From contig JAQUQW010000003.1 of assembly GCA_028716245.1 (NCBI GenBank), positions 84,638 to 148,637 on the forward strand: a stretch of DNA of 64,000 nucleotides, written 5' to 3'. A program made the translations under genes and the position numbers. The notes beneath the pieces are model-generated. The model was not told the origin of the DNA. It saw nothing but the letters and a program-made list of their open reading frames with translations, and did no database searches. How positions within the stretch are numbered: position 1 is the first letter of the stretch; each line of letters opens with the position of its first letter. Origin of the DNA: Candidatus Omnitrophota bacterium (GTDB taxonomy: Bacteria; Omnitrophota; Gorgyraeia; Gygaellales; Profunditerraquicolaceae). Below, piece after piece: positions 46,337-64,000 of this stretch.

Positions 46337-49300
46337 CTATAAAATCATGACCTGGTTATGGTAGAGAAAAATATGCCAAATTAAAATTAATAGCAATGAA
46401 TTCACGGAGAATAATAATTGTTTTATAGATATATCCGCAGGGATACTATTTTCAACTGTTTCCGCTGGTAATATCTCCTCTTGCAAAACTTGCCCCTCTT
46501 TATCTTCGATTTCTTTTTTTCTTACCGGCCACTCTTCAATACATTCTTTATTTCTACTTACCTTCTCTTTGTTCCCAAAGGGATCTTCTACCCAGTATTC
46601 TTTGGATAATATATCTTCAAATCTTTCGAAACTGACTTTTTTAAACTCTTCATAACCTTTTTCTGTATGAGTATCTGATGTATTAATTAAATAACTTTCT
46701 CTCCAAAGACAATAATCTTTCCATTTTCCAGGATGTAATTTTCCGCCTAGGCGTTCTTGCTGGTAAAAAATATAATCAATCATAAATTGTATTAACCGGT
46801 GATGATAACCATTTTTTTCAGAATCTTCCTGGTTCTTTTTTACTACTTCTAAAAGTTCCGGCCGTTTTTGCAAATCTATAGCCCCATCCTCTTTTAAAAC
46901 TAAGCTAGCGTTGAATCTTTCTTTTATAGTTTGTGGTAAAACGATAAAATCCTGTGTCTCTCCAGGCTGCCCCTGTCTTGCGGCCCTGCCCTTTAATTGA
47001 TAATCAAGCCTTAAACTTATTTGGCTTAAGGTTGTTGAAACCACAAATAGCCCCCCAAGCTTTACTGCTTCTTTAGTTAATATAATATCAGTACCTCTCC
47101 CTGCTATATTAGTAGACACAGTCACTGCGCCGATTTTACCTGCCTCTTTTACAATCTTTGCTTCATACTTTTCTGTTTTGGCATTAAGCACCTTATGTCT
47201 GATACCTTTTTCTTTCAGCATTCTGCTTAACCGCTCAGATTCACTATCCGATGCTGTCGCTGCTAATACAGGTCTTTTCGCTCTGTATAACTCTTCAATC
47301 TTATCAACTAGAGCTTGGTATTGAATTGTAGCGTTTAAAAATATTTTTGGAAGGAGGTCATCTCTTATGTTTGGTTTTCTTGTAGGAATTACGACTACAT
47401 CAGAAATGCCATAAATTCTCTTTAATTCCTCCTTTGCGAAATTAAAATCAGCCGTGCCGCTCATACCAGATTTTTTCCTGTAAAATTGGAAGAATATTGG
47501 AAGGGGCAATGTCACTAAACGAGTATCTTTTTTAGTGTTGAGATTTTCTTTTAATTCCAATAATTGGTGAATTCCTAACGCGTACCTGCTATTTGGTTTT
47601 TTTCTTCCGGTTGACTGATCAATTACTTTAATCTCTCCTTTTTCCACTAAATAATGCACTCCTTTGCGATAGGAGATTTTTACCTTAAGATATGCTTTAA
47701 TAAACTCCAAATTGGTTAATATCTCAAGCGATACCGCTGTATATTTACTGGAATATCCATACTCAATGGCATCTTTTGTACCATATTCTTTTCTCCATTT
47801 TTTGGTTAATATTCTGTTTACATTTACCTCTCCTTCAGAGGTTAATGTAATATTTCCTTTTTCAATTACATAGTCACTGCCTAATTTTAATTCTTCGGCT
47901 ATCTGCTTTAAATATTTACCTTTGCCCCTTCCTACAACATAAGCAAACCCTAACGCTGAACCATTTAGATCAATAAATGAATAGTCTACTTCATCCAAAA
48001 TGGCAAATGTCTCTGCTAATTGTGAATAAGATAAGTTTCCTCTAAGATAATCAAAACCCGTACTGGGAGTTGTAAATACTATATCTTTTTTGTAGACTTC
48101 TTTTCTAAATGGCCCTTCTATCTTTAAAATAATGGCCTTGATTGTTCTAAATGGAGATATTAACGAGAAAAGTTCTGGAATCATTAAATAAGCAAATAAA
48201 ACCATTGCTATGACAAAAATTCCAGAAATTATCTCGCTCTCAGAAAATAGGAACGCAATACTAAAAACCATAAACAAAGGCATAAAAGACATACCAACTA
48301 AAAACACACCTAATAATATAGAGCCTAATACATCAGCAATATTATTTTTACTTATTCTTTTAGCTGTGCCTACGTCTTGTATTAGCCCAACGCTCAAACC
48401 TAGAAATTCATATAGCTTGCGTGTTTTTTGATAATCTCTCTTTGCCAGATAATCGTTTTGAGTGATAATATGCACTTTTTGGCTGCTTAAAGCGTGTAAA
48501 TAAGCGGGTAACATCGCAACGTAGGTTTTACCCTCTCCGGTTTTTATTTCAGCTACTTTACCTTGATACATTACTATGCCGCCAATCATCTGCACATCGT
48601 ATAATCTTATCCCTTTAAGCCGCCAAAATGCCTCGCGCACCACAGCAAATGCCTCGGGTAAAATCTCATCCCGTGTTTGGCCTTTATCAAGGCGAGCCCT
48701 AAATTCATTTGTTTTTTCCTGTAACTCTTTATCGGAAAGCTGCCGCATTCGCGGCTCAAAGGAGGTTATTTTTTCTACAATCGGTAGGAGCGCTTGAATT
48801 TTTATTTGGTTTTCTTCGGTGAGCTTCTGGATACTTTTTTCTAAATCTCTTTGCTCTTCTTCAATAAGATTCCGTAATTGTTTACCCGGAGGGCCGGTCT
48901 CTTTACCACTCTTTGCTAAATTCATCAAAAGTTTTTTTAACATATCTGAAATAATTGGGAACGTTTCCATTTTTTCTGCTTTTTCTCCCATCCCGCCGTC
49001 TAATTGCTCTTTAGCAGCAACATTTCCGGAAGTAAAAACAGATAGAACATTGTTATTATCCTTTGCTATCTCATAATTAACACTACGCTCTATACCCCAC
49101 CCGCTCTTAATCTCCATTCTCGCTTCATCCAAAAAAATCAATTCTTTAGAATTCAATTCTTTTAAAACCCGCACACTACTTTCCAAAATATATAAGTTAA
49201 TAGGAAAATCTAATATCGCGCCTGAAGCGCTCATCCCGTTTATTTTTCTTAAGAGGTCTCTTTCGGCAGGAGAAAGTATTTTATATGTATTAAACAGCTT

Positions 49301-64000: not shown

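Follow-up and report, generated by a model that had tools for sequence, protein, structure and literature searches.

Asp-Gly-Gly boundaries and an embedded caspase-like domain in a giant SecA-ended protein of Omnitrophota: a possible chromosomal polyprotein

Bacteria of the phylum Omnitrophota carry giant genes, and whether these act as single megaproteins or as precursors is the question addressed here for one of them. The gene lies in a 64,000-nucleotide stretch of a Candidatus Omnitrophota genome (assembly GCA_028716245.1, contig JAQUQW010000003.1, positions 84,638 to 148,637; hereafter the window), and its product combines 23 Asp-Gly-Gly (DGG) tripeptides, a caspase-like domain and a SecA-like end. 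In the giant Omnitrophota proteins described by West-Roberts et al. (2023, bioRxiv 10.1101/2023.11.21.568195; length threshold at least 30,000 residues), SecA_DEAD and PPXD domains without scaffold or wing are found at the end, beside transmembrane (TM) segments, and the SecA-like motor was suggested to export the giant protein's own parts. FBA and PPDK domains also occur in these proteins; cleavage was suspected, with C39 or S8 peptidases as suggested cleavers, but with no cleavage points known the proteins could not be dissected even computationally. Nielsen & Lui (2026, bioRxiv 10.64898/2026.06.07.730766), working with Omnitrophota proteins of at least 10,000 residues, report a 20-protein architecture cluster with PF07517. 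C39 domains form the commonest architecture cluster in long Omnitrophota proteins (bioRxiv 10.1101/2023.11.21.568195; bioRxiv 10.64898/2026.06.07.730766). Neither West-Roberts et al. (2023) nor Nielsen & Lui (2026) mentions DGG, caspase, CHAT, linkers or motifs.

The protein studied here (P0121, MDD5477848.1) resembles this class in its phylum, in having SecA_DEAD and PPXD without scaffold or wing near the C-terminus by TM helices, in its mixed enzymatic modules including kinases and peptidases, in the presence of FBA and PPDK in or next to the gene, and in that cleavage is suspected. It is unlike the class in its length (6,949 residues, below both thresholds), its few TM helices, its peptidases (M48 and caspase-like) and its DGG sites, and in having no C39, S8, dockerin, beta-helix or carbohydrate-binding modules; by Pfam, no C39 or S8 peptidase domain is found in all 6,949 residues. 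Given the published architecture, the SecA-ended giant open reading frame (ORF) is thus a smaller member of a described class. An initial annotation, made from the letters of the window, had called the SecA fusion 'highly unusual', which cannot be upheld in view of the architecture in West-Roberts et al. (2023) and the 20-protein cluster of Nielsen & Lui (2026). What is new here is the DGG punctuation together with the embedded caspase-like protease, and the most distinctive feature is the set of 23 DGG boundaries, of which the initial annotation made no mention.

In the window the giant ORF occupies positions 46337..63943 of the minus strand, 5,868 codons from the first in-window ATG at 63943 to the stop codon at 46337-46339. 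Translation of the frame shows it to be stop-free as far as base 64000, giving 5,887 readable codons with the sole stop at the 3' end, that is, 17.6 kb in a single frame in DNA of 37% GC. A database search with the 4,952 window residues outside the SecA-like region matched P0121 with 100% identity and coverage. Its record, on an NCBI contig of 151,874 bp, is named 'MAG: protein kinase [Candidatus Omnitrophica bacterium]', MAG being metagenome-assembled genome. The window part corresponds to residues 1063-6949, the C-terminal 85%. Since P0121 is annotated at 6,949 residues and is identical to the window frame, the gene is real as annotated and runs on for 1,062 codons past the window edge, which bears out the earlier view that the 17.6-kb ORF might exceed the window. 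The NCBI names of P0121 and of its relative P0001 (Candidatus Omnitrophica/Omnitrophota bacterium) likewise agree with the original attribution to Omnitrophota. A word-indexed protein search with the 4,952 residues gave no match besides P0121 itself, Pfam found nothing in the 1,062 N-terminal residues outside the window, a scan of genome contigs with the N-terminal 566 residues returned zero relatives, and an NCBIfam scan added no annotation.

The full protein contains 23 DGG, whereas 1.60 +/- 1.25 are expected from 2000 shuffles, which never gave more than 7 (Poisson P ~5e-19); for the window part the count is 20, with 1.4 expected and at most 5 over 500 shuffles. It is the sole strongly enriched tripeptide (14-fold), and Asp precedes 23 of the 37 GG dipeptides in the full protein. 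The window's other minus-strand ORFs, 23 in number with 14,546 residues, have 69 GG dipeptides and no DGG. No site (0/23) lies inside a recognised Pfam domain; the kinase-like, M48 and SecA-like domains each fall within one DGG-delimited module. The sites divide the protein into 24 modules (S01-S24), most of them 100-325 residues long, the size of ordinary proteins. The 20 in-frame sites in the window are as follows.

DGG sites 1-10, minus strand: 63848-63856, 62903-62911, 62303-62311, 61607-61615, 60866-60874, 59906-59914, 59555-59563, 58625-58633, 57947-57955, 57407-57415
DGG sites 11-20, minus strand: 56984-56992, 56672-56680, 55757-55765, 55025-55033, 54953-54961, 53978-53986, 53321-53329, 52919-52927, 52025-52033, 48992-49000

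They delimit these modules.

63848..64000, minus strand: tail of S04, 51 residues (S04 is residues 560-1113 of the full protein), DGG at end
62903..63847, minus strand: S05, 315 residues, no family hit, DGG at end
62303..62902, minus strand: S06, 200 residues, no family hit, DGG at end
61607..62302, minus strand: S07, 232 residues, two-helix hydrophobic hairpin at start (nt 62150-62284), DGG at end
60866..61606, minus strand: S08, 247 residues, no family hit, DGG at end
59906..60865, minus strand: S09, 320 residues, protein-kinase-like (Pfam Pkinase/RIO1/APH, nt 60110-60592)
59555..59905, minus strand: S10, 117 residues, no family hit, DGG at end
58625..59554, minus strand: S11, 310 residues, no family hit, DGG at end
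57947..58624, minus strand: S12, 226 residues, no family hit, DGG at end
57407..57946, minus strand: S13, 180 residues, weak paralogue of S17
56984..57406, minus strand: S14, 141 residues, no family hit, DGG at end
56672..56983, minus strand: S15, 104 residues, no family hit, DGG at end
55757..56671, minus strand: S16, 305 residues, caspase/CHAT/DUF4347-like clan CD domain, DGG at end
55025..55756, minus strand: S17, 244 residues, paralogue of S13, DGG at end
54953..55024, minus strand: S18, 24-residue spacer between two DGG sites (KGAGSGTTRYPSVARDDSILQDGG), like the 26-residue double-DGG spacer before the protease domain of P0123
53978..54952, minus strand: S19, 325 residues, no family hit, DGG at end
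53321..53977, minus strand: S20, 219 residues, M48 (HtpX/Ste24-type) zinc metallopeptidase (Pfam, nt 53444-53926)
52919..53320, minus strand: S21, 134 residues, 'KSGKITGPPG' 49 residues past its DGG, DGG at end
52025..52918, minus strand: S22, 298 residues, no family hit, DGG at end
48992..52024, minus strand: S23, 1,011 residues, longest DGG-free module
46340..48991, minus strand: S24, 884 residues, SecA-like membrane-anchored ATPase, begins directly after the last DGG

Could the tripeptide simply be part of a repeat unit? All-against-all BLAST shows S01-S24 to be mutually unrelated save for one weak pair, S13/S17, so DGG is not a repeat-unit component and a tandem-repeat origin was rejected. 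The flanks are weakly biased, towards Lys at -1 (9 of the 23 sites) and towards small residues at +1 and +2, and the composition around the sites shows a weak, non-significant linker-like trend. The rule for C39 double-glycine leaders failed as well: position -4 is Lys in 9/23 sites and hydrophobic in few, and the protein is without a C39 domain. A subset of the sites reads [ST]-[IV]-L-x(1,2)-DGG.

The module that stands out among the 24 is S16, which holds the sequence 'VVIGHGDGD ... FYSCEAGQG' and whose fold core spans nt 56030-56653. Its domain begins 6 residues past one DGG and the module closes at the next. Its main features are as follows.

56447-56449, minus strand: S16 His75
56267-56413, minus strand: lineage-specific helical insertion of ~45 residues between His and Cys
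56183-56185, minus strand: S16 Cys163
56150-56152, minus strand: S16 Asn174

S16 alone has no Pfam, NCBIfam or PDB sequence hit. An exhaustive phmmer search of 1.84 billion representatives recovered 29 relatives (E 5e-14 to 8e-4), several of them very large. Two of these pass Pfam thresholds, P0141 for Peptidase_C14 (29.5 > 21.4 bits) and P0130 for DUF4347 (36.2 > 24.6 bits), and four more relatives reach CHAT below threshold; the Peptidase_C14, DUF4347 and CHAT matches all cover the His-Cys core. Ala9, His75, Cys163 and Asn174 are invariant in a 26-sequence alignment of the family, the catalytic-type His and Cys each end a beta-strand (E67-73 and E152-161), and among PDB entries the family profile weakly matches a CHAT protein, caspase-3 and caspase-6, GHG falling on the caspase SHG. 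The relatives' family hits, the invariant dyad and the weak PDB matches together identify S16 as a clan CD cysteine-protease domain of the caspase-haemoglobinase fold with an intact His/Cys dyad; protease activity is predicted. It shares with the clan CD families (caspase, metacaspase, CHAT, DUF4347) the alpha/beta fold, the order His then Cys, and the GHG and SC(S/E)(T/A)G motifs. Unlike caspase, CHAT and DUF4347 proteins it reaches no Pfam model, has the helical insertion between His and Cys, and belongs to a small subfamily (S16, P0122 and P0123). A scan of metagenome contigs with the S16-subfamily alignment found no further relatives.

DGG also punctuates a second giant protein. P0123 (7,886 residues, NCBI assembly GCA_048634245.1) carries an S16-subfamily domain, among the closest relatives of S16, at its extreme N-terminus. 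Five DGG are present in the annotated ORF (one at residue 228) and two more in a 61-codon open stretch directly upstream. The protease domain is bracketed in the order DGG, 26 residues, DGG, ~20 residues, domain, 36 residues, DGG, and the remaining DGG lie exactly between a beta-1,3-glucan synthase region, an S-adenosylmethionine methyltransferase with ICMT-like domain, a UDP-glucose pyrophosphorylase (UDPGP), a 35-residue spacer, and a TM plus HEAT-repeat module. The third protein is P0001, a relative of S24, in which 'GDGG' stands 38 residues before a conserved 'GPP'; in the window protein DGG stands 35 residues before it, and the surrounding sequence is unconserved.

Three side observations concern the sequence near these sites. 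A 'GPP' motif, often K-S-G-K-x-T-G-P-P-G, follows 35-49 residues past DGG in four modules of three proteins: S21 (52919-53320), the start of S24 (48890-48991), P0001 (residue 76) and P0123 (residue 6526); P0121 has four GPP against 0.4 expected. The spacers between double DGG sites are alike, reading '..RYPSVARDDSILQ-DGG' in the window protein (54953-55024) and '..KYPVCFSDNPDSSNSILET-DGG' in P0123 (L003 1432-1509). S13 and S17 both open with 'SA[EA]KQFVE[MT]L' directly past DGG and both hold 'INLKTG[KE]IT', the sole internal duplication found.

We propose that the giant protein is a polyprotein cleaved at DGG, a reading to which we give a probability of about one half. On this proposal the ribosome would make a single chain in which short linkers, each with an invariant Asp-Gly-Gly, connect the 24 modules, and a protease would cut at DGG to give ordinary-sized products in fixed 1:1 amounts; among these would be an 884-residue SecA-type ATPase, two proteases (a caspase-like cysteine enzyme and the M48 metalloprotease of the membrane), a kinase-like protein and one with a TM hairpin. 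This is the best-supported reading of the sequence data, since an invariant tripeptide stands in otherwise free linkers, the modules are of ordinary size, and a DGG-bracketed protease domain is found in two unrelated giant proteins. Traits of self-processing polyproteins are present, namely a recurrent junction site (23 DGG outside domains, and likewise in P0123) and in-chain proteases (S16 and S20); S24, which follows the last DGG directly and has the size of a stand-alone SecA, also counts in favor. The likeliest processing enzyme would be S16, itself bracketed by DGG, although we regard this assignment as doubtful. Clan CD enzymes are specific for the P1 residue, and caspases and C13 enzymes cleave after Asp and before small residues. 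This specificity favors the bond between Asp and the first Gly (D/GG) as the putative S16 cut; a cut after the second Gly (DGG/), of the double-glycine type, is the alternative. More tentative than cleavage as such is the full picture, in which a 21-kb gene on a cellular chromosome would encode 24 modules split at DGG by an embedded clan CD protease, yielding a set of fixed stoichiometry that includes a minimal SecA-type motor. That the chain is cut, at which bond, by which enzyme, and what the SecA-like motor moves are all matters that we infer.

Comparable arrangements are known. In MARTX toxins, which are secreted and have RTX repeats, an embedded cysteine protease domain (CPD, clan CD family C80) auto-processes short linkers between modules and so releases effector modules; it cuts after Leu and is activated by inositol hexakisphosphate. 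The giant protein, too, is bacterial, very large and modular and has a clan CD cysteine protease among its modules, but it has the DGG motif, its protease is DUF4347/CHAT/caspase-like, and its modules seem to be cytoplasmic or membrane-bound. Among viral polyproteins cleaved at Gly-Gly are African swine fever virus pp220/pp62 (by pS273R) and the substrates of coronavirus PLpro (at LXGG), alphavirus nsP2 and adenain. The proteases in question, papain- or Ulp-like members of clans CA and CE, cleave behind the GG of sites whose P4 and P5 residues are hydrophobic or basic. As in these systems, there is one long product with many units, an invariant Gly-Gly junction site and a protease within or beside the polyprotein; the giant protein differs in its clan CD protease, in the invariant Asp at the third position and in its cellular genome. 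C39/PCAT double-glycine leaders also have Gly-Gly at or before the putative cut, and C39 is frequent in long Omnitrophota proteins, whereas the giant protein has no C39 domain, does not follow the hydrophobic -4/-7/-12 consensus, and has internal, repeated sites instead of one N-terminal leader.

If the proposal is right, the gene would be a bacterial counterpart of viral polyprotein expression and its DGG sites the first defined set of processing sites for Omnitrophota giant genes. The motif and the bracketed protease make it possible to test whether the products of giant genes are cleaved or intact: DGG predicts exact neo-termini to be sought in metaproteomes and offers natural cut points for structure prediction module by module, and enrichment of DGG, or of GAYGGYGG, at domain boundaries is a simple sequence test that can be applied across all long proteins.

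Several observations weigh against cleavage at DGG or against S16 as the enzyme. The DGG pattern was found in only three proteins, and scans of genome and metagenome collections added none. P0125, P0138, P0142, P0144 and P0129 carry S16-family domains without DGG enrichment; as this holds for most of the large proteins with such a domain, the family is not generally a DGG-processing enzyme. In P0129 the protease domain and a homologue of the C-terminal part of S23 lie ~120 residues apart in one chain that has no DGG between them. Nor was a basic S1-pocket residue identified in S16 to account for Asp specificity. The residues around DGG are weakly conserved, as the 9/23 sites with Lys at -1 illustrate, and local hydropathy at the sites is not significantly different from that of the rest of the protein. 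Synonymous codons at DGG are biased (GAC-GGC-GGS), which a purely protein-level signal does not predict, and two of the P0123 sites precede the annotated start, in a region devoid of canonical start codons.

What else could the sites be? The protein might be one uncleaved megaprotein, a membrane-tethered multi-enzyme scaffold in which DGG is a hinge, a docking motif or a modification site and the SecA-like end and TM helices serve as the anchor. In favor of this are the neighboring fusions (FBA+FBPase, PPDK, TIM+GAPDH+PGK), which are stable and unpunctuated and show that the lineage tolerates very long multi-domain chains, the co-existence of protease and S23-type modules in the single chain of P0129, the 'multi-enzyme metabolic clusters' tiling single polypeptides in Nielsen & Lui (bioRxiv 10.64898/2026.06.07.730766), and the fact that polyprotein cleavage is deduced from sequence. 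A hinge, however, could do without an invariant tripeptide. Linkers rich in Gly or Ser usually drift in sequence, whereas all three residues of DGG are retained in 23/23 sites amid unconserved flanks. The 24-residue S18 between two DGG makes little sense as a domain, and the bracketing of a protease domain in two unrelated proteins points to processing; we consider an intact scaffold rather unlikely. A variant of the cleavage reading is that the cut falls after the glycines (DGG/X) and is made by a different enzyme, either a GG-specific cysteine protease encoded elsewhere (C39-type or Ulp/adenain-like) or the M48 module, with S16 having another role. Proteases that cut after Gly-Gly are well known (C39 bacteriocin-processing peptidases, ubiquitin-like proteases, viral papain-like proteases) and speak for this variant, as does the scarcity of DGG among S16-family members. 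The C39 cluster is moreover the commonest in long Omnitrophota proteins and its members were proposed as processors by West-Roberts et al. Against it, no C39, S8 or Ulp-like Pfam domain occurs anywhere in the 6,949 residues, the hydrophobic -4 and -7 positions of double-glycine leaders are wanting, and a protease that reads GG only does not obviously account for the invariant Asp. This variant seems improbable but is to be taken seriously as an alternative. That the long ORF is an artefact, with mis-assembly or sequencing errors having erased stops between separate genes, is a concern because the sequence stems from a metagenome-assembled genome, but it is very improbable: the frame is stop-free over 17.6 kb at 37% GC, NCBI annotates the identical 6,949-residue product on a 152-kb contig, the DGG junctions show no start-codon or ribosome-binding-site pattern of former gene starts, and the same architecture is known from curated complete genomes (West-Roberts et al., bioRxiv 10.1101/2023.11.21.568195).

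The codon bias raises the further possibility that the true signal is a nucleotide-level element, the RNA or DNA octamer GACGGCGG, and that DGG is only its translation; such an element might cause pausing or recoding, serve in RNA processing or protein binding, or be a recombination scar or core site for in-frame joining of modules. Asp is encoded by GAC at 15 of the 20 window sites against 19% of the Asp codons of the ORF (p = 1e-7), the first Gly by GGC at 19 of 20 against a background of 31% (p = 3e-9), and the second by GGC or GGG at 16 of 20. The same GAC-GGC-GGN choice is seen in two other assemblies, at the P0001 site, encoded GACGGCGGC (L001 112-120), and in the P0123 locus (L003 1423, 1501, 2236, 20983 and 23071), where GAC and GGC are each used at 5/7 sites, so that the synonymous bias extends to three assemblies. 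In the window the octamer GAYGGYGG is rare outside the giant ORF: the remaining 46 kb of the coding strand hold two copies, and the other strand has none in all 64 kb. The stretch L003 1351-1554, which precedes the TTG annotated as the start of P0123, has two perfect GACGGCGG/DGG sites and no ATG, GTG or TTG, with a TATAAT at 1343-1348. This implies either a non-canonical or wrongly called start or a motif that extends into the 5' untranslated region. Yet 20 of the 21 octamers on the sense strand of the giant ORF are in frame 0, whereas a pure nucleotide signal could use any frame (RR or TA), and the sites that depart from the octamer (GATGGAGGT, GACGGGGGA, GACGGTGGT and GATGGCGGA) still encode DGG. 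The near-exclusive use of frame 0 and the keeping of D-G-G despite differing codons argue for a signal linked to the reading frame, at the protein level. Nothing is conserved past the 9 nt, the complementary CCGCCGTC is nowhere on the transcript strand, and a Shine-Dalgarno or internal-initiation reading was rejected because GGAGG is avoided in the codon choice and the sites are not followed by a consistent in-frame start. A nucleotide-level element is decidedly improbable; if DGG is not a cleavage site, however, the codon bias at 28 sites in three assemblies would still point to an unrecognised signal at the translation or RNA level.

The last module, S24, was recognised as SecA-like by the initial annotation, and profile search confirms this: Pfam gives SecA_DEAD at 1.7e-70, P-loop_SecA at 9.3e-42 and SecA_PP_bind, the preprotein cross-linking domain (PPXD) inserted in NBD1, at 6.3e-14 (above cutoff), together covering nt 46892-48823. 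Its parts are as follows.

48359-48823, minus strand: first part of SecA_DEAD, which starts at nt 48823
48524-48544, minus strand: Walker A, KTGEGKT
48095-48370, minus strand: insertion in NBD1, module residues 208-299 (92 residues)
48254-48328, minus strand: TM1 of the insertion
48167-48232, minus strand: TM2 of the insertion
47984-47995, minus strand: DEVD
47555-47908, minus strand: PPXD
46892-47374, minus strand: NBD2
46745-46861, minus strand: long scaffold-type helix
46484-46732, minus strand: three short helices
46343-46438, minus strand: C-terminal TM helix

An AlphaFold2 (AF2) model of S24 (pLDDT 78.8, pTM 0.76) starts with two additional helices, continues with NBD1, which a helical insertion (208-299) interrupts, and then with PPXD and NBD2, and closes with a 39-residue scaffold-type helix (711-749), three short helices and a terminal helix (852-883). 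In a Foldseek search with the model the top 36 hits were all SecA or SecA2 (E down to 6e-42), and the TM-score against the isolated E. coli motor was 0.80. Identity to bacterial SecAs is ~37-39%, and the alignment shows the conserved motifs KTGEGKT, DEVD, GRGTD and GRxxRQG / RQGQPG. These profile and fold matches mark S24 as a true SecA-family motor.

The claim that ~1000 residues (46900-48930) align to SecA over nearly its full length stands as to location, but the SecA domains make up ~645 of the 884 residues. The helical wing domain SecA_SW (PF07516) gave no Pfam hit at E <= 0.1; in precomputed Pfam annotation it is present in nearly all housekeeping SecA hits and in none of P0001, P0002 and P0121. 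In an alignment with 42 relatives, the two-helix-finger motif G..LR.Y.Q.DP..EY is replaced by gaps at the near-invariant columns G1290, Y1297, Q1299, P1302 and Y1306; it is missing from S24 in a second alignment as well. The 39-residue helix after NBD2 is where a scaffold helix is expected in the AF2 model, whereas its sequence alignment to the SecA scaffold helix is weak, and it is followed by ~90 residues with three helices. There is no hit to the SEC-C zinc finger (PF02810), and a TM helix takes the C-terminus instead. This terminal helix had been noticed at the outset and is real. The 'triple-TM' insertion after the Walker region is real too, but it consists of two hydrophobic helices and one amphipathic helix and so is a hairpin, not a triple TM; hydropathy likewise predicts this pair of TM helices together with the C-terminal one. 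At the N-terminus there is an extension of 55 residues with two helices. S24 is thus like housekeeping SecA and SecA2 in its NBD1, PPXD, NBD2, Walker A, DEVD, GRGTD / GRxxRQG and, in the AF2 prediction, a long scaffold-type helix past NBD2, and unlike them in being without a helical wing, a conserved two-helix-finger motif and a SEC-C zinc finger, in its TM-hairpin insertion in NBD1, C-terminal TM anchor and N-terminal extension, and in being the last module of a giant ORF. It is a true SecA-family motor that lacks wing domain, finger motif and zinc finger and is anchored by its own TM helices.

Only two sequences among 5.8 billion proteins are closer to S24 than housekeeping SecAs are: P0001, from an Omnitrophica MAG (49% identical), and P0002, from a JGI metagenome (44%). 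Both are fragments on ~2.5-kb contigs and both are without PF07516 and PF02810. The insertion between 'GLSVG' and the 'D-I-x-x-T' block is common to S24, P0001 and P0002, and the C-terminal hydrophobic helix to S24 and P0002. A scan of genome contigs with the clade-specific SecA-like block gave no further relatives; a word-indexed profile search with the clade-specific C-terminal SecA-like region gave no matches, the query proteins themselves not being recovered.

If released at the last DGG, S24 would be an 884-residue SecA-type ATPase held in the membrane by the NBD1 hairpin and the C-terminal helix (three TM helices), and these helices could replace the wing domain, two-helix finger and zinc finger that it lacks, which are the membrane- and SecY-interacting parts. 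It may thus be a stand-alone membrane-anchored ATPase derived from a precursor and not a motor permanently fused to 6,000 residues. The initial description of a 'covalently attached' motor is overstated in this light, as the DGG punctuation and the embedded caspase-like protease suggest that the attachment may be transient.

The kinase, peptidase and HEAT modules listed by the initial annotation had mixed fortunes. The kinase is found in S09 (Pkinase 1.6e-11), with HGDIAADN at 60296-60319 and DFG at 60251-60259; PADLOC returned generic kinase hits only. The peptidase is S20 (Peptidase M48 7.1e-8, 32.9 bits against a cutoff of 20.3), with HEIAH at 53699-53713, EKRAD at 53510-53524 and, between these two motifs, two TM helices within nt 53510-53674; the Glu of EKRAD is the presumed zinc ligand. 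The HEAT assignment, by contrast, was not confirmed by Pfam for the helical repeats of S23. The C-terminal 372 residues of S23 (nt 49067-50182) are homologous to residues 965-1352 of P0129 (31% identity, E 2.5e-40), and its 'FGSDIDG' (49532-49552) is possibly nucleotidyltransferase-like. P0129 is a conventional protein of 1,949 residues with its caspase-like domain at residues 652-823 and the S23 homologue at 965-1352. That an S16-type domain and the S23 C-terminal module co-occur in this protein suggests that they are functionally linked.

The left 23 kb of the window are ordinary bacterial chromosome (MnmG, class II ribonucleotide reductase, LacI/ROK, ABC sugar transporter, histidine kinase, porin), and Rfam and tRNA scans of the 64-kb window were empty. 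Downstream of the giant ORF, past a 548-nt gap, lie five tightly packed large minus-strand ORFs.

44193-45788, minus strand: 531-residue ORF, only sub-threshold hits
28952-44188, minus strand: FBA class II + GlpX-type FBPase, 1,279 residues; PPDK with long extensions, 2,267 residues; TIM + GAPDH + PGK, 1,493 residues
23653-28929, minus strand: 1,758-residue ORF, zero Pfam hits

The five contain neither DGG nor another punctuation motif, so in this genome multi-enzyme fusions and a DGG-punctuated protein stand side by side. The glycolytic ORFs among them fit the finding of West-Roberts et al. that glycolytic domains accompany giant proteins. All three fused central-carbon ORFs, which lie in a row (28952-44188), carry long unannotated regions. 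The 548-nt gap that follows the giant ORF contains a near-consensus sigma70-type promoter on the minus strand (TTGACA, 16 nt, TATACT; 45978-46005), and no intrinsic terminator was detected in it. G+C is lower in the block of large genes (23600-64000; 0.35-0.40 within the giant ORF) than in much of the housekeeping region (6000-31000; 0.44-0.47). GC skew is negative throughout the window, and essentially all genes are on the minus strand.

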